From a virus: DNA of 64,000 nt. The notes beneath the pieces are model-generated. The model saw only the letters and a list, made by a program, of their open reading frames with translations. It did no database searches and was not told the origin of the DNA. The stretch lies in IMG/VR virus record IMGVR_UViG_3300025276_000026, positions 1-64,000 of that record. One strand, 5' to 3'. This document shows, one piece after another, positions 1-64,000 of this stretch. Made by a program: the position numbers and the translations under genes. Position 1 is the first letter of the stretch, and every line of letters begins with the position of its first letter.

Positions 1-7
1 TGATAGA

Positions 8-454
8 GTGATGAGTGAGTTGGACTATCCATCCCATAGAGTAGAACACGGTGTTATCTCTGAGAAGTCTCAATGGTTATTTGATAATTGGTCTGAGGTG
101 TGTGAGTTGACTCGTATAGATGGTGTCGAGTACTATAAGAATGACCCTTCGTATGTTGATGAGTCTATACGTGGTTCTATGGGTAATAGTCGTTTGTATC
201 CTCCCCATACGGATTGTGGTAGTCGTAAGCTTCTTACTATACTCGTACCCTTATGCGAGGTTGGGTGTCCTACTATGTTTAATGGTGTCTCTCGGTCTCG
301 TGTTTGGTGTCACGAATGGGCGTTGAATGATGCGTATATGTTTAGACCTTCTAATAGGTCATATCACTCTTATCAGAATACTATGGATTGCAATCGATGG
401 ATTGGGAATATTAATATATGTGGTGTGGTACCCGAGGGTGGGGTTTGTAACTAA
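8..454 (+). CDS. 2OG-Fe(II) oxygenase-like protein (only plus-strand gene in the window; start may lie further upstream)
   Basis: HTD iron motif (PPHTDCGSRKLLTILVPL), distal H (SYHSY) and R (NRWIGNINI) in double-stranded beta-helix spacing. Confidence 0.6.
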   Translation: MMSELDYPSHRVEHGVISEKSQWLFDNWSEVCELTRIDGVEYYKNDPSYVDESIRGSMGNSRLYPPHTDCGSRKLLTILVPLCEVGCPTMFNGVSRSRVWCHEWALNDAYMFRPSNRSYHSYQNTMDCNRWIGNINICGVVPEGGVCN

Positions 455-503
455 ACAGTTTTATGGACGTTAAAGTGTCGAGACCCGACACTTTGTTGCA
501 CGT

Positions 504-1241
504 CTAGTCTATCTCTTGTCTTACTTCGATGTGTAGGAATGCGTCTAGTCCCTTGGTCTCGTTGTATATACTAGGTGGGTCGAGTCTTGTGTTGGTAACG
601 TGTCCGTCTATATGGATATCGAATGCTTGGGACATTCTTGGTTCCGTTCTCGTGTTGGAGTCTACGGAATGCACGATGAGTGGTGAGAATAGATGCAAGT
701 CACCTCTTATGTTCTCTACCCATCCCTTACCTTGGTACCATGTACCGTATTCTCTATGTTTGTTCTCACTTAGGAAAACATTACCGCTAATCATGTGATT
801 CCTAGCGATGTCTTCGAAGGGTAGGTGTGCATCGATAGTCTTATACTCATGTTTACCTATGAGAGGTCTCTGCATCTTAGTACCATCTTCGTATTCAAGA
901 CTTGCATGTCGATGGGGTTTGATACCCTCACCAGTAGTCCATAGATTACACCATGACTTAATGAATATATCGTTTACGTCTCTCGTGTCTACTTGTTGTA
1001 CTAACCTTTCTATTAACGAGATGTTGAGTTCCTCTTCTATGAGAGGTATCCAGTTAAATGAAGCGTGTAATGCAGTCAATCCTACGTAACCATTATCATT
1101 AGACAAAGCAAAATCCCCATACTCTCGTATAAGGGATTCTGATTTGTTGGTGATGAGTTCACAGATAGAGTCACACTCTGAGTCTGTATAGAACTTAGGA
1201 ATAACTACGTGGTAGTCTTCACTCTGTCTTATAGAACCCAA
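504..1241 (-). CDS. putative 2OG-Fe(II) oxygenase (phage TIGR02466-like)
   Basis: SWCNLW...PHRH, ISGNVFL, GDLHLFSPLIVHSV...RMSQAFDI pattern. Confidence 0.7.
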   Translation of the reverse strand: MGSIRQSEDYHVVIPKFYTDSECDSICELITNKSESLIREYGDFALSNDNGYVGLTALHASFNWIPLIEEELNISLIERLVQQVDTRDVNDIFIKSWCNLWTTGEGIKPHRHASLEYEDGTKMQRPLIGKHEYKTIDAHLPFEDIARNHMISGNVFLSENKHREYGTWYQGKGWVENIRGDLHLFSPLIVHSVDSNTRTEPRMSQAFDIHIDGHVTNTRLDPPSIYNETKGLDAFLHIEVRQEID

Positions 1242-7382: not shown

Positions 7383-7716
7383 CTTCTATACCCTCAAATA
7401 CTCTGACTGTTGCTCTGTTGACTTTGCCTGACATTAAGCCAGGTTTTGCAACTGCAAGTGCAGATAGATTATGTCTTTGAAATATCTGTAGATACTCCGT
7501 TTTTTCTGCTTCGATTGAAGCATTCCTACGACTCATATTAGAAAGAGCTTTTCCTTGTTTCTCAAAGGATTCCTTCATGACTGCTATAGTTCGTTGTTGT
7601 TCTTCTACCGCTGCAGTCAATTTAGCATTGTTTGCTATCAAGACTTGGTTCTGTGAATACTGAGTGTATCCAAAGAAACAGGCTGCAACGAGAAGACCGA
7701 TTAATAAATTTTGCAT
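7333..7716 (-). CDS. probable i-spanin
   Basis: N-terminal TM, coiled coil, AKPGLM motif; paired with the lipoprotein as for T4 pseT.3/pseT.2. Confidence 0.7.
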   Translation of the reverse strand: MQNLLIGLLVAACFFGYTQYSQNQVLIANNAKLTAAVEEQQRTIAVMKESFEKQGKALSNMSRRNASIEAEKTEYLQIFQRHNLSALAVAKPGLMSGKVNRATVRVFEGIEDDTKNISNLDASTNDE

Positions 7717-12469: not shown

Positions 12470-13422
12470 CTTTTTCTTTTCTCTTTCTCAATTGCTAATT
12501 CAAATCCATCATAGTTATTTGCAAACTCACTCTTCGTAACTCTGTTGTGATATACGTCTGCAAACTTCATAAATTGGTCTTTAGTTCGTTTACACTCTTC
12601 ATCATTCTCATCTGCATATCTATGTGGTCTACCATCAAATGATAATGCAAGATGGTCTGTCTCTGGCTTCTCGCTGGGGTGTGGATGCATCTCATTGATA
12701 TCCAGTAGTCTACTGTCTTCATTAAAGAAGTGTAGAAAGATATGGTATGAGTAATCACCCACTAGATAATCTCTCCAGTGAATTACGTTTGGCCCTTGAT
12801 ATAATAGTACATCGCCAGGCTCTAAAGATATAGGGATACCTCTTCTGTTTCTATGTGGTAGTCCTTGTGATATTGCAAATGCTTCATCCATGTCACCCAT
12901 GTCCACATAGTTACCATCGTTCTGTACCCATATCTTCCAAGGTGCATTGTCATCTGTCTTATAATCTAGACATATGGTTGCACTTATCTCACATGATGGT
13001 CTATCAGTATGAGCTCTTAGGTATGCACCTCTATCATATTTCCTTGTATAGGAATATGTTTCCCTTAGACCCATGTCAATGACACCGTCTAATTTATCCT
13101 TTAGCCATCTATGTAGGGAAACTGCCATTGGAGTACAGTAGTTTGCTTTGGACTTTCCTAGTGAATCTTTAGGTGAGTTTTGAGTAATCTCATGTTCTGT
13201 CTTGAATATGGCTTCATCCCATTTTTTGTTACCTTCAATGGTTTTCCATGCATCTAATGACATGTTGATAATGTCTTTGGGTATAAAGTTTTTTAGTACT
13301 ACGTACCTGTCCTTCATCAATGACCATGTCTCGGGATTGGTCACACCAGCAATACTAGTGCCTGGTCTTTCATCGTCGGGGTATGTATATTTTACTGTCT
13401 TTGCATCATATGGCACAGGCAT
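12466..13422 (-). CDS. 2OG-Fe(II) oxygenase located between nrdA and nrdB
   Basis: YSYTRKY...AHTDRPSCEISAT, PGDVLLYQG...HWR; probable start MPVPY after GAGGA. Confidence 0.85.
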   Translation of the reverse strand: MPVPYDAKTVKYTYPDDERPGTSIAGVTNPETWSLMKDRYVVLKNFIPKDIINMSLDAWKTIEGNKKWDEAIFKTEHEITQNSPKDSLGKSKANYCTPMAVSLHRWLKDKLDGVIDMGLRETYSYTRKYDRGAYLRAHTDRPSCEISATICLDYKTDDNAPWKIWVQNDGNYVDMGDMDEAFAISQGLPHRNRRGIPISLEPGDVLLYQGPNVIHWRDYLVGDYSYHIFLHFFNEDSRLLDINEMHPHPSEKPETDHLALSFDGRPHRYADENDEECKRTKDQFMKFADVYHNRVTKSEFANNYDGFELAIEKEKRKR

Positions 13423-44101: not shown

Positions 44102-44132
44102 AATCTATACTCCATAATAAATAGATACACCC

Positions 44133-44161: not shown

Positions 44162-44170
44162 GGGGGTTTC

Positions 44171-44667: not shown

Positions 44668-44707
44668 TATTTATAGCATATATGGGGACGAATTTAAAAA
44701 CTTCAAG
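44668..44707 (-). promoter_or_regulatory. sigma32 (RpoH) promoter followed by a T4 late promoter
   Basis: CTTGAA-N14-CCCCATAT (44680-44707), then TATAAATA (44668-44675). Confidence 0.8.
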
Positions 44708-47384: not shown

Positions 47385-47391
47385 AATCCTT

Positions 47392-47538: not shown

Positions 47539-47546
47539 ATATTCTC

Positions 47547-49374: not shown

Positions 49375-50272
49375 GTTTTTCTCCTATTGAATGTAACTCG
49401 TTTCTTCCATGTGTTCCATGGGGGTGACGATGTTCATCTTTAATTACCCAAAAACTTCTATCGTGTCCTTGGTATATTAGTTCTAGAACGGCAAGTTCAA
49501 TTGCTGAACGTGTTGCTTTCGTAACACCTTCATTTTCTGCTCTGCCATCTTCCATTTCAATTAACTTCGTATCCATATCAACGAAGCGGAATACATCATA
49601 ACCACCACCTGTACTTAGAATCGTTTTCTGAGTCTGTACATTCAGTAAAATCTCACCAGTTAAAGTTGATATTCCTCTCAACGATACGGTGATAACATCC
49701 CTACGATATGAAATAGAACTGCCAATACCTAAGTATCTTGCGCCTCTTCCACCGCTTTCGATGTTCGAATCATAACCAATAATCCCACCTTCCAGTAGGA
49801 TTCCTGCGAAGAGCAAGGGTTGAATTCCTGTTGGGGAACCCTCATTACCTTCCTGTTCTGCAAAACTTTCTCTAGTAGAACGAATGATTTGACGCTCTCT
49901 TACTAGTGCATCTAAACTTGTTCTCTCTACTACTCTAAACCATTTACCCTTCCCTGCTGTCTTAAGTGCATCAATCAAAAATGATTCAGCTCCTTGTGTG
50001 ACTGCAGTGGAGAAAGATGCAATTCCATCTTTACTCTTACGTTGTCCTGTCTTATCCATGAAAGCGTAGACTGCAACGACTGGCATTACATCTGCTGGTG
50101 GTAACAGTAACAACTCTTTATAAGTAGGTATATTTACTACTTCTGCCTTCTCAATGCACTCACCCACCTTACTCATTACAAGAGAGGTGCAACTGTCGGT
50201 CATAGACGGAATACTTGCACACCCAGTGGTGAACAAGACCGTTATCAGTCCTATAATTGCCCATTGCTTCAT
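49364..50272 (-). CDS. csgG: curli secretion channel lipoprotein CsgG
   Basis: lipobox TTGC; VAVYAFMDKTGQRK, FSTAVTQG, WFRVVER, LVRERQIIR, EGGIIGYDSN, GGRGARYLGIG. Confidence 0.95.
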   Translation of the reverse strand: MKQWAIIGLITVLFTTGCASIPSMTDSCTSLVMSKVGECIEKAEVVNIPTYKELLLLPPADVMPVVAVYAFMDKTGQRKSKDGIASFSTAVTQGAESFLIDALKTAGKGKWFRVVERTSLDALVRERQIIRSTRESFAEQEGNEGSPTGIQPLLFAGILLEGGIIGYDSNIESGGRGARYLGIGSSISYRRDVITVSLRGISTLTGEILLNVQTQKTILSTGGGYDVFRFVDMDTKLIEMEDGRAENEGVTKATRSAIELAVLELIYQGHDRSFWVIKDEHRHPHGTHGRNELHSIGEKHEE

Positions 50273-50767
50273 TTAGAAACTTCCTGTACCAACTGGTATA
50301 TCTAAAATCGTTGTTGTCCCATCCTCGGTCACTATCGTTAATCGAATGAAGTCTACTCCATCCTCTCCAGTCATCCTTTCATATGTGACTGTATTACCTT
50401 CCATTACGAAAGTACCGTAGGCAGCTGCTGTTCCGTTAGAGAACATGTTCTCTACTAACTGTTTTGCTAACTGAGCATAAATTCTGCTCTCTACGTTTCT
50501 TAAAAATTTTGCAAGTGTTGTGTTCTGTGCTTCTCTGTCTGCCTTTGCAATGGCATCTTCTAAATCTTGTTTTATCTTATCACGTCTAGACTTCTCTTGA
50601 TTTTCTATAGTCAAATAGTGAGCAGATATCCCTATCCCATTAAAGGATGGACTCTTAAACTTGTGTACTATCTCGTCTGCATTGGCATAGTTGATACCAA
50701 GACCACATGCTGTTACCAACATTATTAGTCTTACAACGTGCAATTTACTTTCTATTTTTCTCAACAT
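50273..50767 (-). CDS. csgF: curli assembly component CsgF (true start probably near 50722-50743)
   Basis: signal peptide then EIVHKFKSPSFNG; FLRNVESRIYAQLAKQL; C-terminal GTTTILDIP; adjacent to csgG. Confidence 0.88.
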   Translation of the reverse strand: MLRKIESKLHVVRLIMLVTACGLGINYANADEIVHKFKSPSFNGIGISAHYLTIENQEKSRRDKIKQDLEDAIAKADREAQNTTLAKFLRNVESRIYAQLAKQLVENMFSNGTAAAYGTFVMEGNTVTYERMTGEDGVDFIRLTIVTEDGTTTILDIPVGTGSF

Positions 50768-51020
50768 TCTGTGACTCCTGCTTCTTGCTGTTCTCTTTCA
50801 TTTCGAGAACCACATTTACTTTCTGCTGTAAACGGATTAAATCTTGGTCTAACATTCTGACTTGGTCAATAACTTTAATCAATGCAAAATGCTGTTTCTC
50901 TATCTCGGGTTCTAGTTTTTCACCTACGAACCACCAAATAAAATATATGAAATATCCTAGACCCACCATCATTACAATTGGGAATCCGTAATCAGATATT
51001 ACTTGAACGAGACCTTCCAT
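50745..51020 (-). CDS. small membrane protein (TM + coiled coil)
   Basis: YGFPIVMMVGLGYFIYFIW TM; LIKVIDQVRMLDQDLIRL. Confidence 0.75.
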   Translation of the reverse strand: MEGLVQVISDYGFPIVMMVGLGYFIYFIWWFVGEKLEPEIEKQHFALIKVIDQVRMLDQDLIRLQQKVNVVLEMKENSKKQESQNVEKNRK

Positions 51021-51317
51021 TTAGTCTCTCCTTACATCTAGTTTACCGTCTTCTATAAAGTTCTCTGCTCTTGCAACCCTGTCTATATCGGGTCTAAGTT
51101 CTAACGCTGCAGAGACTAGTAAATCTATCTTAATCATTTCATTGGACATTGTTCTTGCACGATTCTCTAGGGATGTACAGAACATTGTAAGGGTTTTGAT
51201 ATCATCAACAACACCTTCAAGTATTTGTTTTATGACAAGGAATATGAAAAAGCCCATTACTAAACTTCCAGCAATCGGAGCTCCCACTTCACCTATCAAT
51301 ACAAATATATCATTCAT
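51021..51317 (-). CDS. small membrane protein (TM + coiled coil), similar to its neighbour
   Basis: VGAPIAGSLVMGFFIFLVI TM; LENRARTMSNEMIKID. Confidence 0.75.
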   Translation of the reverse strand: MNDIFVLIGEVGAPIAGSLVMGFFIFLVIKQILEGVVDDIKTLTMFCTSLENRARTMSNEMIKIDLLVSAALELRPDIDRVARAENFIEDGKLDVRRD

Positions 51318-51322
51318 GCATT

Positions 51323-51330
51323 TATTTATG
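51323..51330 (-). promoter_or_regulatory. T4-type late promoter heading the curli/cyclase operon
   Basis: CATAAATA a few nt before the ATG at 51317, downstream of a terminator. Confidence 0.55.
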
Positions 51331-51363
51331 TTTTTTCTTTATTAGTAAGCACTTACATGGGCT

Positions 51364-51392
51364 AAAAAAAAGAGACGTTTCCATCTCTTTTT
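51364..51392 (-). terminator. rho-independent terminator
   Basis: AGAGATG-GAAA-CGTCTCT hairpin followed by a T-run. Confidence 0.85.
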
Positions 51393-51407
51393 CAAACTCG
51401 TATAGAG

Positions 51408-51656
51408 TTACTTCAATTGTTCACGGATTTCACTAATCACAGCAGCCTTGGAGCCAGACTTCTTAACCTTAAGGTTCTTCTTGTCTGCAAGTTCTACTAG
51501 TTGATTCTTAGTCAATTTCTTAAGGTCTGCAACGGTAGTTGGTTTCTCTTGAGTTGACTTGGTCGCTGGTTTCGAAACGGCTTGTTTCTTGTCACCTTTG
51601 ACAGCGAAAAACAAGAATGCAACAGCGAGTATTGCTACTATAACTATTCCGTCCAT
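51408..51656 (-). CDS. TM-anchored protein with Rho-N/HeH-like helical domain
   Basis: N-terminal TM; LKKLTKNQLVELA...KAAVISEI. Confidence 0.7.
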   Translation of the reverse strand: MDGIVIVAILAVAFLFFAVKGDKKQAVSKPATKSTQEKPTTVADLKKLTKNQLVELADKKNLKVKKSGSKAAVISEIREQLK

Positions 51657-51670
51657 AATGTTCTCCTAAT

Positions 51671-51865
51671 TTATTTATCCAACAATGGATTTTTATCTTT
51701 TGCTTTACCAATGGCAAGTGCAAAGACTTCTATGTATTTATAGCACTTCGCCCAGACGGCATCGTCCTTCGGTGTGTCGGTCATCATTACAATGACTGAA
51801 CATATAGATATGATTGCTGGTATCGCTGACATGAATGCCCAGATACTACTGATTAAATCCCACAT
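51671..51865 (-). CDS. small membrane protein (holin-like candidate)
   Basis: TM then TDTPKDD...ALAIGKAK. Confidence 0.6.
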   Translation of the reverse strand: MWDLISSIWAFMSAIPAIISICSVIVMMTDTPKDDAVWAKCYKYIEVFALAIGKAKDKNPLLDK

Positions 51866-51900
51866 AAGTTTCTCCTATTAAAGTTAACAGAAGTATTTAT

Positions 51901-52311
51901 CTATTTAGTACCACCAATGGAGTACTTTGTTGTAAGTTTCCAGTTAGTTTTTTCTTTGTAAGGTATAATTTTGATTTGTGAAAGGGGTGCAGTTGGTTCT
52001 TCTATCATAGAAGGTGTAACTACTGTGACAAGTTTCCACTGTGCTAGCAGCTGACAGATAGTGTTTCTTCTACCTATATCAGACTCATCTATGTTAGTGG
52101 GTTTACCGTCGAGTTTGAATAACTCTTTGAAGTGAGTGATGTAATACTTACCACGTTTGTGTAGTATGTGACAAGATTGAAATAACTCTTGGTCTCTTCT
52201 AGATGCAACACCTATGCGTGAAAGTGTCTCCCTAATCTTTAGGAAGTCGTCTTTTTCGGGGAAGGTTACCTCAACGAGGTCTTTTACTATTTTTTCTTGT
52301 CCATCATCCAT
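51901..52311 (-). CDS. regA: translational repressor RegA
   Basis: DDFLKIRETLSRIGVAS, QSCHILHKRGKYYITHFKELF, W.L..KYSIG. Confidence 0.97.
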   Translation of the reverse strand: MDDGQEKIVKDLVEVTFPEKDDFLKIRETLSRIGVASRRDQELFQSCHILHKRGKYYITHFKELFKLDGKPTNIDESDIGRRNTICQLLAQWKLVTVVTPSMIEEPTAPLSQIKIIPYKEKTNWKLTTKYSIGGTK

Positions 52312-52702
52312 TGTTATTACCACCAATATTCATTCTGTTCTTCAACTCACGTATTTCTTTATCAGACAATAGAGTAAACAATTCTTTTGCTTCTCTTGTT
52401 GACATCTGATAATAGTCTTTTACGACAGTGAGTTTTTTACTAACGTATGGTTTAGCCCATTTTGAAAATCTCTGTCGTTTTCGTAAAGTATTTAGGAAAA
52501 ATACGTATTGAAGACGATTGTCTAGACCGTGGCGACAGTTCATTTCGTTAGTAAAGAAAACAGAATCTTGGTGGTAAGACAAAGATTTGTTTATAAGGAA
52601 TGGTTGATATGCTTTCTCTTCGATATCATCAACCATGATATCTTTTTTGTCGGAAGAGACCGACTTAACAAAGTCAAAAGGATTTCGTTTGTTAGGGTTC
52701 AT
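52304..52702 (-). CDS. gp62: clamp loader small subunit (gp62-like)
   Basis: YQPFLINKSLS, NEMN, LRKRQRFSKW. Confidence 0.93.
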   Translation of the reverse strand: MNPNKRNPFDFVKSVSSDKKDIMVDDIEEKAYQPFLINKSLSYHQDSVFFTNEMNCRHGLDNRLQYVFFLNTLRKRQRFSKWAKPYVSKKLTVVKDYYQMSTREAKELFTLLSDKEIRELKNRMNIGGNNNG

Positions 52703-52968
52703 TACTTACCTGTTACAGCAGAAAATGAATTGAGTAGGTCATCACCATAAAGAGGTTCACCAAAGAAAACAATTTCACCTGTCTCTCTAATCTCTCTCTT
52801 GACGACACCGTTGTTGTATTCAATATCCAATACTGAACCATCGTTTCCCCTAGTGTCGTACCAGCAGGAGTTTAAGGAATGTGCGTGAAGGGATTTGACC
52901 TTGTTAGACCACTCCTCTGCGAGAAGTAATCGTCTTTGTTTGTCTACTACTGAATCGTATTCACTCAT
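52702..52968 (-). CDS. hypothetical protein
   Basis: ORF coupled to gp62. Confidence 0.7.
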   Translation of the reverse strand: MSEYDSVVDKQRRLLLAEEWSNKVKSLHAHSLNSCWYDTRGNDGSVLDIEYNNGVVKREIRETGEIVFFGEPLYGDDLLNSFSAVTGK

Positions 52969-53042
52969 TTTTTAATCCCCCATCCTAGGCACCAACAAGT
53001 GGTGACTGTAATTGCAAGTAGTAACATCACTACATCAATCAT
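52965..53042 (-). CDS. 25-aa hydrophobic micropeptide
   Basis: MIDVVMLLLAITVTTCWCLGWGIKK with ATGA overlaps at both ends. Confidence 0.55.
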   Translation of the reverse strand: MIDVVMLLLAITVTTCWCLGWGIKK

Positions 53043-53977
53043 TTGAATTTGCATTCTCCCATGACTTCTGTTAGACATGCAACAAAGTTAATCTCTGAGT
53101 CCATTGCAAAAGCTGCTTTGTATTGATAGTCTGCAATTATTAAAACTGCAGCTGGTATTGATTGTGGTTCGAGTTTAGTTTCAAGTGCATTGAAAACTTT
53201 TCGGAATAATGTATTGAAGTCATTGTCGGAATTAGTTCCAACCCACTTCCTCATTGCCGACCAGTTCTTTGACTTAATCATATCGACCAGTGGTGTTAAC
53301 TTCTCTTCCGATAAGGTTGAGATGAGTCCACTATCAATTACACCACTTACACCGTAACGTTGAATCTCATTGAGACATCTACGGAAATCGGGGAAGAACT
53401 TCATGATTAATTCTGCAAGGACTTTAGGGTCTGCCTCAATCTTTTCTATCTCACAAATGTTCTTACATCTTGACAACATCTGTTGTGCAAGTTGAGGTCT
53501 TTGTGTTGGTGTTATTGAAAAATCTATAACTGTAGTTCTAGAATGTAATGGTGGAATAATTCTATTCTTGTAATTACATGTAAAGATAAATCTACAATTG
53601 GACGAGAACTCTTCTATGAAGTTTCTCAAAGCTGGTTGAACTGAGTCTGCAGATATGTAATCTGCTTCGTCTAAGATAACGACCTTTGCACCACCCGATA
53701 ATGAAACCGAAGATGCAAAGTTCTTAATCTTTGTTCTGAGTGTGTCAATCAAACGTCCTTCATCGGAACCGTTGATTACTATAAAGTCTGCATCGAGTTC
53801 ATTACACAATGCTTTTGCAACCGTTGTTTTACCAACACCTGCTGACCCACACAATAATAGGTTAGGTATCTCTCCCTGCTTTACAAATTCCTTAAAGGTT
53901 TCTTTAAGTTCTTTTGGTAGTATGGTGTCCTCAATTGTTTGAGGACGATACTTTTCTACATAGAGAAATTCATTCAT
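53039..53977 (-). CDS. gp44: clamp loader large subunit (gp44-like)
   Basis: VEKYRP, GSAGVGKTT, ILDEAD, FPDFRR; start MNEFLY. Confidence 0.97.
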   Translation of the reverse strand: MNEFLYVEKYRPQTIEDTILPKELKETFKEFVKQGEIPNLLLCGSAGVGKTTVAKALCNELDADFIVINGSDEGRLIDTLRTKIKNFASSVSLSGGAKVVILDEADYISADSVQPALRNFIEEFSSNCRFIFTCNYKNRIIPPLHSRTTVIDFSITPTQRPQLAQQMLSRCKNICEIEKIEADPKVLAELIMKFFPDFRRCLNEIQRYGVSGVIDSGLISTLSEEKLTPLVDMIKSKNWSAMRKWVGTNSDNDFNTLFRKVFNALETKLEPQSIPAAVLIIADYQYKAAFAMDSEINFVACLTEVMGECKFK

Positions 53978-54064
53978 AGGAGCAAACCCCCCACCGAGTT
54001 TGCAGTGCAGACAACCCATTGATGAGTGAAGTCTACTCCCGCGTATATTGCAGAGACTGGCACA
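53978..54064 (-). ncRNA. candidate structured RNA in the gp45-gp44 intergenic leader
   Basis: GC-rich island with several helices and a competing 10-bp alternative helix next to the AUG. Confidence 0.5.
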
Positions 54065-54088
54065 ATATTCACACTATTAATATATAGG

Positions 54089-54760
54089 TTAGGCATTGTA
54101 TTTGCTGTCTGGCTCCAGTGCAATAAAGTACTCAAGTTCTACATCTACATTATTGAAATGAGATATACCTTTTGATGATACTTGAACATCATAGTTACCG
54201 TCTAGAATTTTAAGATTCTCCATCTTGAAATTCATTTCATAAGATGTACCATCACTCTCTGCTTCTACGATTCTTGAGAACGTATTAGAAGAAGGACTCT
54301 TCTTATCTGTAACAACTAATGTTACGACTGTACCATCTGACTTAAGAACTAAATCATTAACACCTAGAACTGCAGCTGCTTTCTTCAAGTCACCTAACAA
54401 TGTGGATGTTACTTTGAATTCAATCTCTGCCTCTGGCATAGTTATCATCTTGTCGGGTGCAGTCACCATACCTTCCGCTGCATAGAAATATGCGAGAGAG
54501 GAATTGTTATCTGCCACAGACAATGACGAAGCATTGAATTGGAAGTCGGGGTCATCCATTAAGGATGTTGCACCTAAGAATTCTGGCAAGTTGTATATAC
54601 TGAAGTCTTGAGGGAATTCCTCAGACACAGTTGCAACTGCAAGAATGTTTTTCATATTGGAAATAGTTTCCAGTTTGTTGCCTGTTTTGACTCGAATGCC
54701 CGAGTTTATAGTCGAGAAGTTCTTTAGAACATCTTTTGTATCATTACTAATTTTCATCAC
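54089..54760 (-). CDS. gp45: sliding clamp (gp45-like)
   Basis: LKNFSTINSGI, IYNLPEFL, FKMENLKIL.GNY.V, YFIALE. Confidence 0.96.
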   Translation of the reverse strand: MMKISNDTKDVLKNFSTINSGIRVKTGNKLETISNMKNILAVATVSEEFPQDFSIYNLPEFLGATSLMDDPDFQFNASSLSVADNNSSLAYFYAAEGMVTAPDKMITMPEAEIEFKVTSTLLGDLKKAAAVLGVNDLVLKSDGTVVTLVVTDKKSPSSNTFSRIVEAESDGTSYEMNFKMENLKILDGNYDVQVSSKGISHFNNVDVELEYFIALEPDSKYNA

Positions 54761-55083
54761 TAGTTAGTCTCCTTTTTGTAGCCCGATTCCTCGAGCAATA
54801 ATTTATCGTGGTTGTTAAGGGCAAGGAATCCATAATGGATTACCTTCAATAGGTCGGCACGATTCTTCCCACCCTTTTTCCCATATCTCTGGGCATATTT
54901 CATAATATTCCCAACACAGAATCCTTCACCGTGACCTGCGTCCATGATAAACTCTGTTGCTTGATATTTGTTAAGACTATAATGTTGGTCGTAAGTCGAG
55001 TCAACATATGAAGTGAACTCCTTTAAGAGTTCTCCTTCATTGTATTTGTAGTCTACAGTCTTAATAGTTTTATTCCAATACAT
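54760..55083 (-). CDS. DUF3310-like phage protein
   Basis: YKYNE...QHY...GFCVGNIMKYAQRYGKK...DLLKVIHY. Confidence 0.8.
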   Translation of the reverse strand: MYWNKTIKTVDYKYNEGELLKEFTSYVDSTYDQHYSLNKYQATEFIMDAGHGEGFCVGNIMKYAQRYGKKGGKNRADLLKVIHYGFLALNNHDKLLLEESGYKKETN

Positions 55084-55089
55084 GATACT

Positions 55090-55118
55090 AGTATACTCCT
55101 AGTAGTCCGATTGGTCAA
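55090..55118 (-). promoter_or_regulatory. sigma70 promoter (apparently leaderless)
   Basis: TTGACC-N17-TATACT, 6 nt before ATG. Confidence 0.65.
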
Positions 55119-56337
55119 TAGTGTTTTCTGAACTTTCTGCATTCAAGTCGATGCCTGCATCAATCTTGGAGTAGAGGTCAAGAATACTGTTTCTAGTTTC
55201 TTCGTCGAACCTAGAGATACACATTGTAATTGACTTGAGTTTGTCATTGAACATTCTGAATGCATTGACAATGTGAACAAGTCTTCTAGTCGTAACAACA
55301 TCGTCGATACCACCTTCGTAATATGTTTTTCTAATGATGTCAGCCCAGTCAACAAGTTTCTCACAGAACTCTGTGTCAACTTCACCAGTAAGACCCATCT
55401 CTTTTGTAAGGATTGTCTTCTCAATTTTCACTGGTGGATATTCTTGTTGCATCGTAATTGCAAACCTTTCCAACATCGCTTCGTTCATGATTTGAGTTCC
55501 AATGAACTTTCCATCGTCTGAACCTTGACCTTTAGTGTTTGCAGTTGCAAGAACTGTAAACCCAGCAGTAGGTGAAACCCACTCACCAGTCTTCTTAATA
55601 AGGTAACCTTTACCTTCTAGAACTGATTGTAGACACATCAACTTGTTAGAACCTAAGTCCACTTCGTCAAGAAGTAACACGGCACCTTTTCTCATTGCTT
55701 TGATAACTGGGCCTTCTCTAAAGATGACGTTACCATTCTGCAAAGTGTGACCACCCATTAGGTCGTCCTCATCGGTCTCGATAGTAATGTTAACTCTGTA
55801 AAGTTCTCTCTTCAATTGAGCACAAGTTTGTTCTATCATTAACGTTTTACCATTACCACTCAGACCAGTAACGAATACTGGAAAGAACAATTTGGATTTG
55901 ATAATGTTCTTGACATCTTTGAAATGTCCGAAAGGAACATAGTTAGACATAATCTCGGGGATGATTTTAACACCATCGTCGAGTAGATTGACTGACTCTG
56001 TTTGAGCTGCAACTGGCATATTACTTGGGGAAGCAATTGATGTAATTGGAGCAGCCTTTGTAGAAACTGCAACTGGAACATCATCTGAATACCCACCGTT
56101 ATAACCAGTGATAACTGCTTGAAGGTTGTACAACAAAGGCCCAGTCTCTTGGGTTTCTTTGAAGTCATACTTCGAGGATTTTATCCATGAAGGGAAATAT
56201 CCATCAAAGGCATCTTTGATTTCTTTCCTTCCAAAGGAAGTTTGGTTAGGGAATTTCGTAACGAGTTCTCCCAAAAACTCAGCCCTGTCGGGTGTGTAAG
56301 AAAATTTCTTACCGTTAACATCAATTGAATTTGTCAT
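55099..56337 (-). CDS. CobS-like / MoxR-type AAA+ ATPase
   Basis: TGLSGNGKT, ETDEDDL, LLLDEVD, TANTKGQG, LERF, TTRRL; start MTNSI after AAGGAG. Confidence 0.92.
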   Translation of the reverse strand: MTNSIDVNGKKFSYTPDRAEFLGELVTKFPNQTSFGRKEIKDAFDGYFPSWIKSSKYDFKETQETGPLLYNLQAVITGYNGGYSDDVPVAVSTKAAPITSIASPSNMPVAAQTESVNLLDDGVKIIPEIMSNYVPFGHFKDVKNIIKSKLFFPVFVTGLSGNGKTLMIEQTCAQLKRELYRVNITIETDEDDLMGGHTLQNGNVIFREGPVIKAMRKGAVLLLDEVDLGSNKLMCLQSVLEGKGYLIKKTGEWVSPTAGFTVLATANTKGQGSDDGKFIGTQIMNEAMLERFAITMQQEYPPVKIEKTILTKEMGLTGEVDTEFCEKLVDWADIIRKTYYEGGIDDVVTTRRLVHIVNAFRMFNDKLKSITMCISRFDEETRNSILDLYSKIDAGIDLNAESSENTIDQSDY

Positions 56338-56377
56338 ATAGTCTCCTTGTCTTTCAATTTGTTTTCTCATCATGTAT

Positions 56378-56407
56378 ATAATAACAAAAAGCTGGGGGCA
56401 TTGTCAA
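56378..56407 (-). promoter_or_regulatory. early promoter
   Basis: GCCTTGACAATGC; TTGACA-N18-TATTAT. Confidence 0.75.
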
Positions 56408-56409
56408 GG

Positions 56410-56682
56410 CTACTTTAGCGACTCGAATCTAGTTCCCATTTTCTCTAAGCATTTCACAACGCCCTTCTTGTTTCTTTCGGTCAAATAGTTCTCACCTTTG
56501 TTGACCCATATTCTGAATGCAAAGCATTCCTTTTCTTCAGACTTACATTCTTGTATCTTTGGACAATCATGGAATGTACATGGGGCAGGCCCAACATCCA
56601 TAACTGCATCTGCAAATTTGGAATAGTCTGATTGGTGGTTTATGTAATACGCCTCGTCTACTCTAAGTGGGTCTCTATTCAT
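56410..56682 (-). CDS. Cys-rich hypothetical protein
   Basis: PC...C....EC....ECFAF..WV. Confidence 0.7.
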   Translation of the reverse strand: MNRDPLRVDEAYYINHQSDYSKFADAVMDVGPAPCTFHDCPKIQECKSEEKECFAFRIWVNKGENYLTERNKKGVVKCLEKMGTRFESLK

Positions 56683-59051
56683 TATGATATCTCCTTGATA
56701 AATTCATTTGTTAAAAATCTTGATGTAGTTTTTGCTCTCTGATTTCTTTTGAAAGCTGCCATGACTTTTGACTTCTTGGCATCGAACAATTCGTCGGACA
56801 GTTCGTCTGAACCTTCAGCCGATAACGATGAGGTTGCAGTCAAGAATAATTTTCCGTATCCGTGAGCCTCAACAACCAATCCGTTTTTTCTAATCTCCAT
56901 CCAAAGAGCTCTGTCGTTATGGTAAACTGTATCTTTATGTTCTGTGTATTGCATGATGTCCATCATGTCTGCTTTCTTGTCTAGGCAGAAGTAACCAGTG
57001 ACAGTAACGTTACAAGTTTTTGACAACCAAGACAAAAGGTTCTGAGTCTTTTTGAAGTCATTGCTGTATCTTGCACTGTATCTGTTACTTCTCTGAATTT
57101 CTTGATAAGGAAATACTTTGTTATCGTAAGGGTCAATGATTTCTGTCATCTCATTCATATCCCAAGAATCTATTCCTTGTGCTTTTGCCCAGTCGTATTT
57201 CTCATCTCTATCCCCATCATTAAGAAGTGGAGAAGAGTGTGAGTAACCATCTGTGATAACTGTTAAGATTGACTTCTCGATACTGTATGCAGTGTTGAAC
57301 TCAGGCAGTAACTTTCTCATTGCAACTAAACAATGGTTCAGAGGAGTGCCACCTAATCTGTAATTGACAGGTCTGCAACCAGTGTTGAAGTGAACGTAGT
57401 ACTCATTCTCGTCAAGTAGTAACTCAGAGTCATTGTAAAACTCATTATGTTTTGCAATAGTCTTCTCAGAACTTCTCCATCCAAACTTTCCTAGGAAGTG
57501 ATTGTTCCAAAGAGCTGCAACGTTCTTCATCATCTTTGTATATTTTTTGTTGTTCATTTCGTTAGAGAATATTTCTACAAGGTTTCCTGCGTCGGTACCG
57601 TAAGTGTATTCTTCTTCCGCTGCATATGCATCTGAGAACAAGTAGATTCTGTGAGGGATGTTAGTCGCTCTACAGAATTCTGAAAGGATAATTGTTTGTT
57701 CTAATAAGTCAGCACAACTGTTACCAATTGAACCACTCCAATCAAGTAAAACATTCACACCATGATTTTGTCCATCTGGCAAGTAAGTAACTCTTTTGAA
57801 AACGTCATCGACGATTTGATACTTTGCAAGTTTGTTCATGTCTAACTTTCCAGTTTTACCACTGAAAGCTTTAACACTTCTCATTGCAGTCTGTCTCATT
57901 TCAAATTCTTTTGCCATGTGCATAACAAGTTTCTTGTTCTTGTCTCTAAGTTTCTTAGAAGTGAACTCTGCTCTGTAATCTGATTTCGACTTGTTTTCTT
58001 TGACCCAAAAAGTATCCCAGTCAGCAAGAACTTTATCATGACCGATAACTAAATCAACATTTGATTTCTTTTTGAAAACTTCTCTTAAGTTTATTTGAGT
58101 TCTCCATGTTGGAGTGTCTTCTTGAAACATCTCTTCATTGTTATGTGCATTATGTTCAGTGATTGATTCCCTTGCTCCTTGAGCATCGTCGAAGTCTTCG
58201 GCAGTACCTTGACTACCCTCTTTACCACCAGTAGATTTTCTACCTTCTTCTTCTGACTCGTCATCGTCTTCATCGGTGTCATCTGAATCATCACCACCGT
58301 CACCGTACTCGGGTGCTTCTGGCAGGTTGTCTTCACTATCGTCTTCGTCTTCTTCTTCTGAGTCTGAAGTATCATCGTTCCACTCTTCAGAACCAGTTGA
58401 CTCGTCACCTTCTTCTTGGTCTTCGTCGTCGTCTCCCTCGGAAGGAATGTAAGTCTGAGGAACTAATGCTTCGTCGTCTTCAGTTCTTGTCTCGTTTTCT
58501 TTAGACCACTCATAGATAGCAGTTGCACAAACCACAACGTCTTCCCAAGTCTGACAAGCTTCTGCCATGTCTAGGAATACTTGTTCTTCTTTTGTTAGGT
58601 TGATTGTAATTCTTGAACCACACTTAGTAATAAGATTAATCTTATCAATTATTGAAAGTTCCTGTAAGTCTCTTTTTGCAATTCCGAAGAAGTCCTTTTC
58701 CATCAACTCATTGTATGCAGTGTAGAAAGATTTTCTTAGTCCTTGAAATTTTAGTTTGATTGCTTTCTCAATTCTGACATCCTCAACAACGTTAAGGTAA
58801 CCTTTAAGAGTTTTGTTTTTAGTCAATGCATTATGAAGACCCTCGTAAGGTGTGTTCAATGCATGACCAACTTCGTGACCCATGAACAAGTCATAAAGTT
58901 CATTACTAATTCCTTCTTTGAAAGTAGGACAAGCAAGTATCCTATTCTTGACATCGAAGTATGCAGTAGGTATTGGTTTGTGAACAATAGTAATGTTCTC
59001 AGTCGCCATTAACTTTGCAAGTTGGTCTTTTTGGTTTCTAGTATTTGTCAT
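56682..59051 (-). CDS. CobT-like protein: N-terminal HExxH metallopeptidase-like domain, acidic linker, VWA domain
   Basis: HEVGHAL, NVVEDVRIE, Asp/Glu-rich tract, LLDWSGS (MIDAS), GGTPL, ITDG. Confidence 0.88.
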   Translation of the reverse strand: MTNTRNQKDQLAKLMATENITIVHKPIPTAYFDVKNRILACPTFKEGISNELYDLFMGHEVGHALNTPYEGLHNALTKNKTLKGYLNVVEDVRIEKAIKLKFQGLRKSFYTAYNELMEKDFFGIAKRDLQELSIIDKINLITKCGSRITINLTKEEQVFLDMAEACQTWEDVVVCATAIYEWSKENETRTEDDEALVPQTYIPSEGDDDEDQEEGDESTGSEEWNDDTSDSEEEDEDDSEDNLPEAPEYGDGGDDSDDTDEDDDESEEEGRKSTGGKEGSQGTAEDFDDAQGARESITEHNAHNNEEMFQEDTPTWRTQINLREVFKKKSNVDLVIGHDKVLADWDTFWVKENKSKSDYRAEFTSKKLRDKNKKLVMHMAKEFEMRQTAMRSVKAFSGKTGKLDMNKLAKYQIVDDVFKRVTYLPDGQNHGVNVLLDWSGSIGNSCADLLEQTIILSEFCRATNIPHRIYLFSDAYAAEEEYTYGTDAGNLVEIFSNEMNNKKYTKMMKNVAALWNNHFLGKFGWRSSEKTIAKHNEFYNDSELLLDENEYYVHFNTGCRPVNYRLGGTPLNHCLVAMRKLLPEFNTAYSIEKSILTVITDGYSHSSPLLNDGDRDEKYDWAKAQGIDSWDMNEMTEIIDPYDNKVFPYQEIQRSNRYSARYSNDFKKTQNLLSWLSKTCNVTVTGYFCLDKKADMMDIMQYTEHKDTVYHNDRALWMEIRKNGLVVEAHGYGKLFLTATSSLSAEGSDELSDELFDAKKSKVMAAFKRNQRAKTTSRFLTNEFIKEIS

Positions 59052-61118: not shown

Positions 61119-61120
61119 AT

Positions 61121-62464
61121 TTATTTCTTAAGTAGACCGTTATATTTAACGGCAAGGTTATAATATTGCCCGAGTTTCTTAAGTCCAGCATGTCCTGCCT
61201 TGTTAGTCCTCACTGACATCTGCATGGTATACGTTGTATCTTTCGATGCAAGATGTATAAACCAATTTTGTTTTGATGATTTAGAAGCTTCTGCTTTAAT
61301 GAACTTAACTACTGGTAAAAATACTCCGAGTTCATCATCATCTGTAACCTGCTCATACGTGGAACCAATTCCTTTAATAACTTTGGTTGGAACGCCTGGG
61401 GCTTCACGTAAAATTTCTTTCTTTATATAGTCAAATGATTTGCCACCTTGTTTCCCATTCTTATTGAATAGGTCTATCAGTGATTGACGGACTATCTCTA
61501 GTACTTGATTGTAGTACTCTTCATATTGTTTGTTGTTATTTTTATCTAAGTCCTTTAGAACTTGTTGTGTAGTCTTTCTATCTTTACTATCATACGTTGC
61601 AGAAGAAGGCATACCTTCAATCTTTGAGTATACTTTCTTATGTAAGTCTAGTGATAGTTTCTTAACATCTTTACCACTTGAAAATGCTTGGAATACTGGA
61701 TTCACATATGTGTTAAGTTTTGGTTCTGAAGTTTTCTTACCACCTGCTTTAAGAGAGGTTCCTAAGAGAGCTCCATCTGTAAATTGTAAAAAGATATCGC
61801 CTGGATGTTTGGGTGGGACTCCAGCTGGTTTTGCACGGTACCCCCAAAAGACACTCTTGATTGATTTTTCTTTCATCTCATCATAGATATACTTTGTAAT
61901 ACCTATTGCATTCTCAACCTTCTCTGTAAACTTGGATGACTCTTCTGCTTGTGCAATGAAATCTTTTGCTGATTGTTTGTCTGAAGCACCAACACATTTT
62001 AACTTGTCAACGTCCTGTGTAAGTATCCACTCATAGAATGATGGTACCGACTTAGGTTTGTAACGTTTTTCCCATGCAATGCAAGGGAAGAGTTCTGTGA
62101 TACTTGAATTCAGTGTTGTCTCATTCATGCCACCACTCTTGGGTTTAAACATGATGATTGCACGGTCTCCATTCAATGATGGGATAAAGATAGGGTCAAA
62201 ACTTGATAGAGAACTTCCTTTAACTTCTGCAGTAATATCTGCATTCCTTAATTTCTTTTCCATCTCATCTCTATCAGCATCTCTGTCCTGTGTCTTAACA
62301 ACAAAAACTGTAGTCTTAGTATTAGATTTCTTATGCTTCTCAATCGTCAACCCATCTATTACTTCCGAAGGTAGGTCATTGACTTCTAATGCTTCGTCGA
62401 GTGAAGGAATATCTAGTCTGATATCCTCAAGTTTGGGGTCGAGTAATTCGTTGAATGATTTCAT
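61121..62464 (-). CDS. probable virion-packaged protein with PD-(D/E)xK nuclease-like motif
   Basis: MKSFNE N-terminus, late-type ATAAATA upstream; TELFPC, HPGDIFL...GTSLK. Confidence 0.55.
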   Translation of the reverse strand: MKSFNELLDPKLEDIRLDIPSLDEALEVNDLPSEVIDGLTIEKHKKSNTKTTVFVVKTQDRDADRDEMEKKLRNADITAEVKGSSLSSFDPIFIPSLNGDRAIIMFKPKSGGMNETTLNSSITELFPCIAWEKRYKPKSVPSFYEWILTQDVDKLKCVGASDKQSAKDFIAQAEESSKFTEKVENAIGITKYIYDEMKEKSIKSVFWGYRAKPAGVPPKHPGDIFLQFTDGALLGTSLKAGGKKTSEPKLNTYVNPVFQAFSSGKDVKKLSLDLHKKVYSKIEGMPSSATYDSKDRKTTQQVLKDLDKNNNKQYEEYYNQVLEIVRQSLIDLFNKNGKQGGKSFDYIKKEILREAPGVPTKVIKGIGSTYEQVTDDDELGVFLPVVKFIKAEASKSSKQNWFIHLASKDTTYTMQMSVRTNKAGHAGLKKLGQYYNLAVKYNGLLKK

Positions 62465-62477
62465 AATACTATTTATC

Positions 62478-64000
62478 CTATTCTGCTAGTCTAGAGAAGT
62501 TTTTGTACTTCTCAAATCTTAACACATTACTGAACTTATCATATAATGTATCTCCTTTATGACTAATGATAAATGCATTTACTCCATCTGTCAAGGTGTT
62601 TAACAGCTTTAAAAATTCATCTGTACCTGTAACGTCTAGAGATGAGTCAAATACTTCATCTAAAATAAGTAGATTAGTGTTCACACTGTTCTTCATTCTT
62701 GCAACACTTCTCCATGTGAATAGTAGTGCAAGGTCGATTCTCATCTTCTCACCTTGAGAAAAGTTTTCGTATTTGAATACGTCACGGAATCTTGATTTAA
62801 TTGTTTCATCGAATGATTCGTCCAATTCAAACCCAACATAGAACTCAAGTTGTGCTAGATACTTATTAATAAGCTTGTTCATGATAGGAACGTACTGTTT
62901 AATAATCTTCTCTTTAACACCTTGGTCTCTGAGAAGCATGGTTGCAATCTCATAGTAATGTGTTTTGTCTATTAAGGATTTGTTTTTGGTGTGTAGGATA
63001 TCTAATTGGTCTTCACCTTCAGTAATTCTTTCATGTACGTCTGAACCACCAGTGGTCTCTACCTTTAAGGTTTCTATCTCTTCACTAATCTTTTGAATGT
63101 ACTTTTGATTAGATAGAATTTCAGTTTGATGTAACCCTACTTGTCTTTGTATTTGGTCGATGCCGTGTTGGATGTCACAGATTTCAATGATACGGTTTGA
63201 ACAATTCCATAATCCTTCTTCAATCTGTTTGAGCGCAGAAGCAATCTCCGTTGCCTTCGTACTCTTTGATTTGAGATGTTCTTTCTTATGTTCCTCATCT
63301 AACCCCTGTTTGCATGTTGGACATTCGTCGTTCTCTTCATAAAACTCAACTTCTTTCAATGCTTTATTACGTGCATTCGTGAGTTGCTTTTCCACATCTT
63401 GTAAGTCTTTCAACTTCTTATTGATGGAATCTCTATCAGAAATTGTCAACTGAATAGTATTAATTTCTGTGGTATTACTATCTATGACTTCTAAAAGCTC
63501 ACCGATATTTTTATTGGTATCAATAATGGTTTCTTGGAACTGGGTAATCTTTTGCATTCTATTCTCAGTCATCACTTTAACTTGTTCGTTTAAGCCACTG
63601 AGTCTTTCTTCTAGAATTTCAACTTGATGTTGGGTATCCTTCAAGTCAATTTGATGAGCAGCTTTCTTCTTACGAAGTAGTTGCATCATGGTTGTAAAGA
63701 TGTTTATATCAAGTAAGTCTTCTACCAGTTTCCTTCTATCCTTTGCTCTCAATTGCATAAAGGGTGTGAAGTTGGCAGAACCTAGGATTGCAACCTGTGT
63801 AAATGAGCGATAAGACATCTTTAGAATGTTACGTTCTAGATGGTCTTGGTAGTCTCTTACTGTTGCATCTTGGTTTACAAATACGTCATCGACATACAGT
63901 TCAAAGATGTTTGGTTTGATACCACGGATTATTTTGTATTCTCTTTTACCAATATAAAAGAACACCTCAACGACCATAGCTTTCTCGTTGATACTATTAA
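62478..64000 (-). CDS. gp46: recombination endonuclease subunit (T4 gp46 / SbcC-like), 5' end outside window
   Basis: SFTQVAILG, CPTC zinc hook, FSQGEKMRIDLAL, LILDEVFDSSLD, ISHK. Confidence 0.96.
   Translation of the reverse strand, partial: NSINEKAMVVEVFFYIGKREYKIIRGIKPNIFELYVDDVFVNQDATVRDYQDHLERNILKMSYRSFTQVAILGSANFTPFMQLRAKDRRKLVEDLLDINIFTTMMQLLRKKKAAHQIDLKDTQHQVEILEERLSGLNEQVKVMTENRMQKITQFQETIIDTNKNIGELLEVIDSNTTEINTIQLTISDRDSINKKLKDLQDVEKQLTNARNKALKEVEFYEENDECPTCKQGLDEEHKKEHLKSKSTKATEIASALKQIEEGLWNCSNRIIEICDIQHGIDQIQRQVGLHQTEILSNQKYIQKISEEIETLKVETTGGSDVHERITEGEDQLDILHTKNKSLIDKTHYYEIATMLLRDQGVKEKIIKQYVPIMNKLINKYLAQLEFYVGFELDESFDETIKSRFRDVFKYENFSQGEKMRIDLALLFTWRSVARMKNSVNTNLLILDEVFDSSLDVTGTDEFLKLLNTLTDGVNAFIISHKGDTLYDKFSNVLRFEKYKNFSRLAE

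Follow-up and report, generated by a model that had tools for sequence, protein, structure and literature searches.

GC[C/G/T]-Conditional Avoidance of Putative Nuclease Targets in a Marine T4-like Phage Contig Carrying a Cytosine Methyltransferase–TET Gene Pair

Introduction

Burke et al. (2021) expressed 32 metavirome pairs of C5-cytosine DNA methyltransferase (MTase) and TET dioxygenase and found that the methyltransferases target GpC (PMC8256090). Their clade I enzymes (MT43 and MT88) methylate GpC[C/T/G] but not GpCA, while clade IIa enzymes methylate only GpC[C/T] (PMC8256090). Clade I/A gene clusters include a heat-shock protein (HSP), a redoxin, and either a P-loop kinase or a glycosyltransferase, and in clade II/B clusters a DNA polymerase lies upstream (PMC8256090). 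In a 2023 preprint, the discovering group wrote that, for a mark confined to GpC, broad protection "seems unlikely" and described the target DNA as unknown (10.1101/2023.12.21.572611). Here, we analyzed the first 64 kb (positions 1–64,000, hereafter the window) of the 97,368-bp viral contig IMGVR_UViG_3300025276_000026 from IMG/VR. This contig carries an MTase–TET gene pair within a minus-strand block at 39659–44608. Across the window and on to the contig end, a set of putative nuclease target words is purged from the DNA unless GC followed by C, G, or T overlaps or touches them.

The locus resembles the clade I/A systems in several respects. The MTase and TET genes overlap within an Hsp20, redoxin, and P-loop kinase neighborhood, the footprint follows GC[C/G/T] and not GCA, which is the specificity of C5-MT43 and C5-MT88, and the source is likewise a marine metavirome. 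The kind of evidence differs: the earlier enzymes were expressed in E. coli with no phage-genome effect reported, whereas the evidence here is evolutionary, a purge combined with a shield.

The nearest cultured relative is the Methylophilales (OM43) phage Melnitz (MZ577097.1, PMC9004378), whose UvsX, MTase, and TET are 70%, 52%, and 51% identical to those of the contig, respectively. UvsX is also ~65% identical to that of HTVC008M and of cyanomyoviruses, and these identities place the contig among marine T4-like phages of Kyanoviridae type. The order of module genes in Melnitz matches that in the contig, and the footprint recurs there on a set of words that is partly the same. The two differ in layout, which in Melnitz is of the clade II type (a DNA polymerase lies upstream), and in footprint, which in Melnitz is GC[C/T]; Melnitz also leaves CCAGA unpurged and purges GATC only in part. 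In the Melnitz paper, the TET is listed as a hypothetical protein and no avoidance of sites is mentioned (PMC9004378).

Other described systems share single elements with this locus. Synechococcus phage S-B43 makes 5-carboxymethylcytosine at GC via CmoA/CmoX/CmoY (PMC12783734). CmoX is a homologous C5 transferase (33–39% identity) with an SPPC motif and a GC target, and all eight CCGG sites of S-B43 are GC-adjacent (unshielded 0/85, shielded 8/33, observed/expected). In contrast to the present system, CmoX uses carboxy-S-adenosylmethionine (Cx-SAM) via Arg350, S-B43 has no TET, and its CCGG shielding is weaker. Phage dioxygenases associated with ParB and P-loop kinases have been characterized as dioxygenases of thymine and not of 5-methylcytosine (PMC13229309). 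As in their clade C1, the dioxygenase gene here lies beside a ParB-like gene and a P-loop kinase gene, but clade C1 has no neighboring C5-methyltransferase and oxidizes thymine, whereas here a C5-methyltransferase gene overlaps and the footprint involves cytosine contexts only. The chlorella virus enzyme M.CviPI (cited in PMC8256090) is, like the MTase here, a viral orphan C5-methyltransferase with a GpC dinucleotide target, but it methylates every GpC and has no TET or kinase partner, while the footprint here excludes GCA. Phage T4 likewise shields its DNA with a C5-hydroxymethyl-derived cytosine mark, glucosyl-hydroxymethylcytosine, as we propose for this T4-like phage. In T4, every cytosine is replaced before replication and no avoidance is needed; here, only GC[C/G/T] would be marked, after replication, and every other target would have to be purged.

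In classical restriction-site avoidance, phages lose targets by synonymous codon choice. Overlapping Dam or Dcm methylation can block the restriction sites of unrelated enzymes. Both elements recur here, as synonymous removal and as a methyl group from an overlapping methylase motif that would block cleavage. The difference is that the two are combined genome-wide, with avoidance conditional on the phage's own short modification motif, and the genome therefore reveals both nuclease targets and methylase specificity.

Results and Discussion

Unshielded Target Words Are Purged from the Contig

Observed word counts were compared with two codon-preserving shuffles, one permuting synonymous codons within genes and the other permuting third bases while keeping all dinucleotide counts. 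Words with GC within 2 nt were classed as shielded (GC-adjacent) and words with none as unshielded. All 4-, 5-, and 6-mers were scanned for depletion in the unshielded class. The scan yielded two word classes, with eight words at an observed/expected ratio of 0.02 or less when no GC was near and the next word at 0.40. The strongly purged 5-mers were the GATC- and CCGG-containing words, CCAGA, CCTGA, CCAGG, GGACC, GGAGG, and CCCGT. Pooled as GATC, GGWCC, CCGG, CCWGG, CCAGA, CCTGA, GGAGG, and CCCGT, the eight words had 3 unshielded copies against 570 expected (ratio 0.005) and 75 GC-adjacent copies against 74 expected (ratio ~1.0). A first-pass annotation of the window had proposed that nuclease targets are purged unless a modified GpC covers them, and the codon-preserving shuffles bear this out. 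Together with GCAGCA and CCTGCA, considered below, these words make up the genome-wide footprint at 1–64,000 of the window, which continues to 97,368.

GATC was absent from the window (0 against ~101 expected without a nearby GC and 5 with one), as the first-pass annotation had stated, and from the whole contig (0 against 168–264). GGWCC was also absent, with 34 and 55 copies expected in the window and contig, respectively. The window's sole CCGG lies at 42007–42010 in the context ggcCCGGct, that is, as CCGGC, with one GC touching on the 5′ side and another overlapping (GGC) on the 3′ side; unflanked CCGG numbered 0 against 27–42 expected in the whole contig.

All 12 CCWGG copies in the window were GCCWGG or CCWGGC (expected, 5 flanked and 22 unflanked), and in the whole contig unflanked copies numbered 0 against 38–45 and flanked copies 25 against 10–16. 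They are retained as GCCAGG at 7439–7443; as GCCTGG at 13361–13365, 25321–25325, 27389–27393, 61395–61399, and 61800–61804; as GCCAGGC at 12815–12819, 43911–43915, and 43950–43954; as GCCTGGC at 47752–47756; as CCAGGC at 14628–14632; and as CCTGGC at 32742–32746. The first-pass annotation had listed 11 of these, overlooking the copy at 7439; its flanking rule, its coordinates, and its single GC-flanked CCGG were all correct.

The same annotation held that every CCWGA/TCWGG touches or overlaps GC. This was true of 31 of the 32 copies in the window, where 19 were expected with GC within 2 nt and 128 without. The remaining one, agctCCTGA at 46726–46730 on the plus strand, has its GC one base farther off; no other CCWGA of the contig lacks a GC within 2 nt (1 against 180–210 expected). 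GC-adjacent CCWGA numbered 41 against ~27–43 in the whole contig, comprising 30 with G at −1 (expected 20–31), 7 with GC just 5′ of the word (4–5), and 4 with GC just 3′ (4–6). Like GATC and GGWCC, total CCWGA (42 against 207–254) is depleted under models that preserve the protein sequence and either codon or dinucleotide usage, the pattern by which restriction-site avoidance is recognized. The only other unshielded survivors among the words examined were CCTCC at 200–204, CTGATG at 72817–72822, and ACGGG at 77543–77547.

In the GC-adjacent class, individual words were at expectation (observed/expected: CCAGA 28/20, CCTGA 13/9, GGAGG 3/6.6, and CCCGT 3/8). The GC rule extends to CTGATG, for which 15 of 16 copies were GCTGATG, and to CCTGCA and GCAGC. 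Shielded copies were often in excess, with CCWGG at 25/11.6 here, 51/15 in the relative G001, and 68/27 in Melnitz, and GCAGCG at 35/7. This excess suggests that unavoidable sites were rewritten into the shielded form.

Asymmetric words were depleted in both orientations, and the effect therefore acts on DNA rather than on mRNA. It is visible in codon choice, as first noticed for Lys-Ile, Asp-Pro/Leu, and Pro-Glu/Asp pairs and now confirmed by exact counts. Before Glu or Asp, proline was written CCC 99 times, CCA 13 times, CCT 4 times, and CCG never; CCC makes up only 17% of proline codons overall, yet 99 of 116 in this position. ATC followed a codon ending in G in 0 of 352 cases, and GAT preceded a codon starting with C in 0 of 191.

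Two simpler descriptions of the purged words were rejected. The depletion of GGAGG does not reflect avoidance of internal Shine-Dalgarno sequences, since the coding strand holds 3 GGAGG and 1 CCTCC and the survivors obey the GC rule. The view that CCWGR is a single target, as originally put forward, failed as well: G002, another relative, purges CCAGA and not CCTGA, while Melnitz does the reverse. CCWGR comprises at least three separate targets, CCAGA, CCTGA (really CCTGV), and CCWGG, which are purged independently in relatives.

The Base after the Cytosine and the Geometry of Shielding

Words in which GC occurs solely inside TGCA were purged, with CCTGCA at 3/36 and GTGCAC at 0/9 in the contig; for GTGCAC, 0 copies were found against 9–16 expected across three genomes. 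The effect of the next base was resolved with words ending in GC that carry GCA on the bottom strand. For CCTGC with no other GC, followed by A, C, G, and T, the observed/expected counts were 3/36, 15/12, 14/11, and 44/27, respectively, and for GCAGC they were 2/54, 19/8, 35/7, and 41/27. The protecting contexts are GCC, GCG, and GCT, and GCA (TGCA) gives no protection. Modification of all GpC was rejected in favor of GC[C/G/T] because words whose only GC is TGCA are purged. The expectation that methylase specificity could be predicted from the DNA is thereby upheld and refined, and homologous MTases are experimentally GpC-specific (PMC8256090).

The unusual GC composition of the contig follows from the protection given by GCC, GCG, and GCT and withheld by GCA. 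The GC dinucleotide is depleted (rho* 0.71), with GCC, GCG, and GCT at 0.45, 0.25, and 0.61 of zero-order expectation. TGCA accounts for one third of all GC and stands at 1.4 times the shuffle expectation, against 0.73–0.84 in control phages. CpG is depleted as well, with rho* of 0.64 in the contig and 0.55–0.67 across all relatives and controls; this depletion is common to all of them and therefore, unlike that of GC, is not tied to the MTase/TET module.

The GCAGC words behave in a particular way. GCAGCA is nearly absent (2 against 54–59), and GCAGCG and GCAGCC are 2–5-fold over expectation. Because the bottom-strand GCT in the same word is unprotective, the presumed GCAGC nuclease would be blocked only by the top-strand 3′ cytosine. 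GCSGC was absent (0 against 11–13), and the only copies of TGCTGC in the contig lie at 73070 and 73340.

The position of the protecting GC differed among words. CCAGA was rescued by GC at offsets −1, −2, and +5, and not at −3 or +6; at −2 and +5, where GC lies outside the word, the counts were 7/3.5 here and 11/7.3 in G001. On either flank, the marked base may therefore sit one base pair beyond the word. CCTGA was rescued by GC at −1 and −2. CCWGG was rescued by overlapping GC only and not by touching GC, and GATC was never rescued by touching GC (0/7.6 and 0/10.2). CCGG in this clade needs GC on both sides, with single-sided copies at 0/7 here and 1/8.7 in G001. GGWCC is unable to overlap GC, and all 39 GGNCC in the contig were GGSCC, which contains GCC. 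Protection by a touching GC was seen for CCAGA, CCTGA, CCCGT, and CCGG and not for CCWGG or GATC. Rescue from outside the word, together with the P-loop kinase gene, suggests something larger than a methyl group and fits a bulky adduct without proving one. The first-pass annotation had taken such protection to suggest a bulky adduct; the protection is real for some words, but it does not show the adduct.

Relatives and Controls

Three relatives with the MTase/TET pair, analyzed over their whole contigs, followed the same rule on partly different word sets. Unshielded copies numbered 2 of 816 expected in G001 (146 kb), 0 of 242 in G002 (70 kb), and 10 of 574 in Melnitz (141.5 kb), and shielded copies were at 140/111, 50/48, and 151/126, respectively. 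G002 purges CCAGA but not CCTGA or GATC, and Melnitz purges CCTGA but not CCAGA. Words that are not purged in a relative occur there mostly as unshielded copies. G002 has 34 unshielded CCTGA sites that align to the contig without gaps, and at each of these positions the contig has lost the word, in some cases through conversion to GCCAGA.

A wider set of 36 IMG/VR loci carries an MTase 77–99% identical to this one. Every CCWGG in these loci was GC-flanked apart from three unflanked copies in L005. Lineages differed in their purge of GATC, CCWGA, GGAGG, CCCGT, and CTGATG.

The Melnitz footprint lacks protection by GCG, with CCTGCG at 0/12.5 against 19/16 for CCTGCC and 48/39 for CCTGCT. Its layout is that of clade II, and its GC[C/T] footprint agrees with the specificity measured for clade IIa. 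All 68 CCWGG copies in Melnitz are GC-flanked, and CCGG occurs there 15 times.

The cyanophage controls S-RIM8, S-WAM1, P-RSM1, S-SSM4, and S-H25 have no PF00145 or PF12851 match. They purge GC-flanked CCGG completely (0 against 42, 56, 10, 24, and 39 expected, respectively; total 0/171), while MTase/TET phages retain 26 copies against 46 expected. The GC condition is therefore present in relatives with the MTase/TET pair and absent in these relatives without a C5-MTase, as the first-pass annotation anticipated. In all Kyanoviridae cyanophages tested, the purge of CCGG itself was complete or nearly so (unflanked copies 0 against 63–97 expected). CCGG is likewise purged in Melnitz, G001, G002, and the present contig. 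A shared pressure specific to CCGG operates throughout the virus family and its differing hosts.

The Modification Gene Block

Six genes form the minus-strand block at 39659–44608, encoding an Hsp20, a redoxin, the MTase, the TET dioxygenase, a ParB-like protein, and a P-loop kinase. The C5-cytosine DNA methyltransferase (42254–43540, 428 aa) matches PF00145 with an E-value of 7.5e-47 over model positions 1–323 of 324; its motif IV, GSPPCPPFS, lies at residues 102–110, and the ENV motif is present. The TET/JBP-type 2-oxoglutarate (2OG)-Fe(II) dioxygenase (5mYOX; 41280–42329, 349 aa) matches PF12851 with an E-value of 1e-13 and 51.3 bits against a cutoff of 34.9, and its HxD motif is HLD at residues 246–248. 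The two genes overlap by 76 nt. Three features of clade I/A are found here, namely, an MTase with the catalytic Pro-Cys, an adjacent HxD TET, and the HSP/redoxin/kinase neighborhood, and the specificity for GpC[C/T/G] and not GpCA is read indirectly from the genome footprint (CCTGC and GCAGC plus the next base).

We considered whether the MTase is a carboxymethyltransferase of the CmoX type. The position of CmoX Arg350 is occupied by Leu (RIGLMV in place of RVGRMV), both here and in Melnitz. The MTase should therefore, on these residues, transfer methyl rather than carboxymethyl.

The remaining four genes are also on the minus strand. No sequence match in Pfam, PHROG, or PDB was found for the 332-aa open reading frame (ORF) at 40192–41190, and the ParB-like protein was identified by fold search alone. 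Its AlphaFold2 (AF2) model (pLDDT 70) gave a Foldseek match to ParB/Noc/sulfiredoxin (E 9e-6, probability 1.0), and the protein is predicted to fold like this group. It is only 24–26% identical in relatives whose MTase is 91–95% identical. More broadly, the ParB-like gene is hypervariable, with 24–54% identity among relatives whose MTase is 77–95% identical, and evolves far faster than its neighbors; the genes of relatives lie at L015:12336–13472, L024:8587–9573, and L032:7207–8223. In relation to the clade C1 thymine dioxygenases, a ParB-like neighbor is found here, and so is an adjacent C5-methyltransferase, which that clade lacks.

The P-loop nucleotide kinase (39659–40195, 178 aa) matches PF18751 (Ploopntkinase3) with an E-value of 1.8e-7 and 31.3 bits against a cutoff of 27. 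Such kinases phosphorylate 5-hydroxymethylpyrimidines in the DNA of thymine-hypermodifying phages (PMC8256090). The AhpC-type redoxin (43577–44101; PF08534, E 3.6e-28) and the Hsp20 (44171–44608; PF00011, E 1.8e-18) complete the block. No match to aGPT-Pplase3 or HMUD2 was found in the contig, although the controls of that search were also unmatched and the contig is only 54% complete.

Proposed Mechanism and Alternative Explanations

We put the probability at roughly 0.85 that the phage's own GC[C/G/T] mark shields nuclease targets and that unmarked copies have been purged. After replication, the MTase would methylate the cytosine of GC[C/G/T] on either strand, leaving GCA/TGCA bare. The methyl would next be oxidized to hydroxymethyl by the neighboring TET dioxygenase, which the ParB-like protein may activate, and the P-loop kinase may phosphorylate the hydroxymethyl as a handle for a larger adduct. 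The packaged genome would carry a sparse major-groove mark. About ten or more nuclease specificities, presumably restriction enzymes of host populations, would be blocked at targets containing the marked cytosine, and some of these nucleases would also be blocked by a marked cytosine directly adjoining the target. Selection would remove unmarked copies by synonymous codon choice, and marked copies would drift neutrally or arise as replacements. In this scheme, we infer the chemistry of the mark and the ownership of the nucleases, and that they belong to the host is an assumption.

Several points weigh against this explanation. The mark itself is deduced from genes and footprint, and the likely placement of the MTase in clade I comes from gene neighborhood and footprint. 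The core purged set (CCGG, CCWGG, GGWCC, GGAGG, and CCCGT) is common to phages of probably different, streamlined hosts and is therefore not what strain-specific host restriction would predict. Dioxygenases with ParB and kinase partners act on thymine (PMC13229309), and the steps after methylation are therefore uncertain. Finally, the Pelagibacter phage HTVC008M, which has no PF00145 or Tet_JBP match, is only partly usable as a control. GC-adjacent copies of its strictly purged words are depleted too (13/75), but its CCGG shows a GC-flank bias (unflanked 9/30, flanked 42/21), and an effect tied to GC can therefore arise in the absence of these two enzymes. In HTVC008M, 42 of 51 CCGG are GC-flanked, CCGA and CATCG show a similar partial bias, and TCGA and CACTG are purged; an unrecognized GC-directed modification may be present in that phage.

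The alternative that survives best, although we regard it as improbable at about one chance in five, holds that plain 5-methylcytosine (5mC) at GC[C/G/T] is the whole shield and that the TET, ParB-like protein, and kinase serve the 5-hydroxymethyluracil (5hmU) pathway of thymine modification or have another role, in which case there would be no bulky cytosine adduct. In most shielded sites the marked cytosine is part of the word itself, a position at which methylation alone commonly suffices to block restriction enzymes, and CCWGG and GATC are not rescued by a merely touching GC. ParB-dependent, kinase-linked 5mYOX enzymes oxidize thymine, and a C5-methyltransferase occurs in only 6% of mined 5mYOX pathways (PMC13229309). 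Those thymine dioxygenases, however, cluster without an adjacent C5-methyltransferase (PMC13229309), whereas here the genes overlap, and clade A TETs in neighborhoods of the present kind oxidize 5mC in vivo (PMC8256090). The outside-word rescue of CCAGA, with that of CCTGA, CCCGT, and CCGG, also speaks against a methyl group as the whole shield, and no thymine context rescues any word, with so few unshielded sites remaining.

A somewhat less probable alternative accepts the shield and makes the nucleases the phage's own or lineage-wide, degrading host DNA as in T4 while the phage genome has to stay clear of unmarked targets, so that the mark is a sparse self/non-self code and not a means of evading host restriction. 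The contig, G001, G002, and Melnitz have the core words in common despite MTase identities as low as 52%, and the purge of CCGG in all tested Kyanoviridae cyanophages points the same way. The Melnitz host is a streamlined OM43 strain (PMC9004378), unlikely to have at least ten restriction systems. The non-core words (GATC, CCAGA, CCTGA, CGACG, GCAGC, and AACGTT), by contrast, differ between close relatives, which fits changing host repertoires. A set of about ten sequence-specific nucleases was not identified in the contig, whose 138 ORFs are only partly annotated, and avoidance accumulated over many host strains could yield the same pattern. A fuller version of this idea, which we hold to be less probable still, makes the purged words the targets of nucleases that the phage lineage carries or that co-evolve with it and a bulky GC[C/G/T] mark, made with the TET, ParB-like protein, and kinase, the self label, with the fast-evolving ParB-like protein tuning where or when it is written. 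If this were true, unmarked host DNA would be destroyed while the phage's own genome holds marked copies only, a sequence-sparse analogue of the hydroxymethylcytosine self/non-self distinction of T4.

That no modification exists, and that the pattern reflects intrinsic flank specificity of the nucleases or a by-product of codon usage or mutation bias, is very improbable: restriction enzymes can have flank preferences and GC and CG are generally depleted here, but one GC rule serves at least eight unrelated words with GC at varied positions on either side, the failure of GCA holds on two words, shuffles keeping protein, codon pools, and dinucleotide counts do not reproduce the pattern, and the complete purge of GC-flanked CCGG in the five control phages contradicts it.

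On the shield-and-purge explanation, the locus bears on two questions raised by the discovering group: whether the GpC-limited mark acts on phage DNA and whether a sparse mark can protect against restriction. The footprint answers both from the sequence. Given that selection separates marked and unmarked copies of the same word more than 100-fold, the phage genome must carry the mark in nature, and the sparse mark works because it is paired with a complete purge of unmarked targets. Enzymes of this kind are known, and their specificity for GpC has been reported (PMC8256090). Conditional, GC-dependent site avoidance was not described in the literature that we searched, nor in the Melnitz paper (PMC9004378). 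This genome also contributes a difference in footprint from Melnitz (GC[C/G/T] as opposed to GC[C/T]) that parallels the two MTase clades defined by experiment, the cluster with a ParB-like protein and a kinase in place of a glycosyltransferase, and the natural experiment among close relatives. Methylase specificity can be predicted in this way down to the base after the cytosine without experiment, and the footprint supplies a list of the nuclease specificities faced by an uncultured phage as well as a map of the distance from the modified base at which each nuclease is blocked. Because Melnitz is in culture, the prediction can be tested directly.

The Contig and Its Setting

The contig has a CheckV completeness of 54% and a G+C content of 38%, and its minus strand carries 138 ORFs that together span 96% of its length. 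The modification module was found near-identical in DNA sequencing runs from at least nine marine studies. In six marine metatranscriptome runs from five studies, 68–86% of sampled words of the module at 39659–43540 were present; these word matches hint at transcription of the module in the sea and may reflect DNA carry-over. A curli-type set (csgF, csgG, curlin, FecR, and CHASE2-cyclase) is annotated in Melnitz at 50731–56876. Of this set, only the CHASE2 adenylate/guanylate cyclase was confirmed with Pfam within 44703–51330 on the minus strand of the window.

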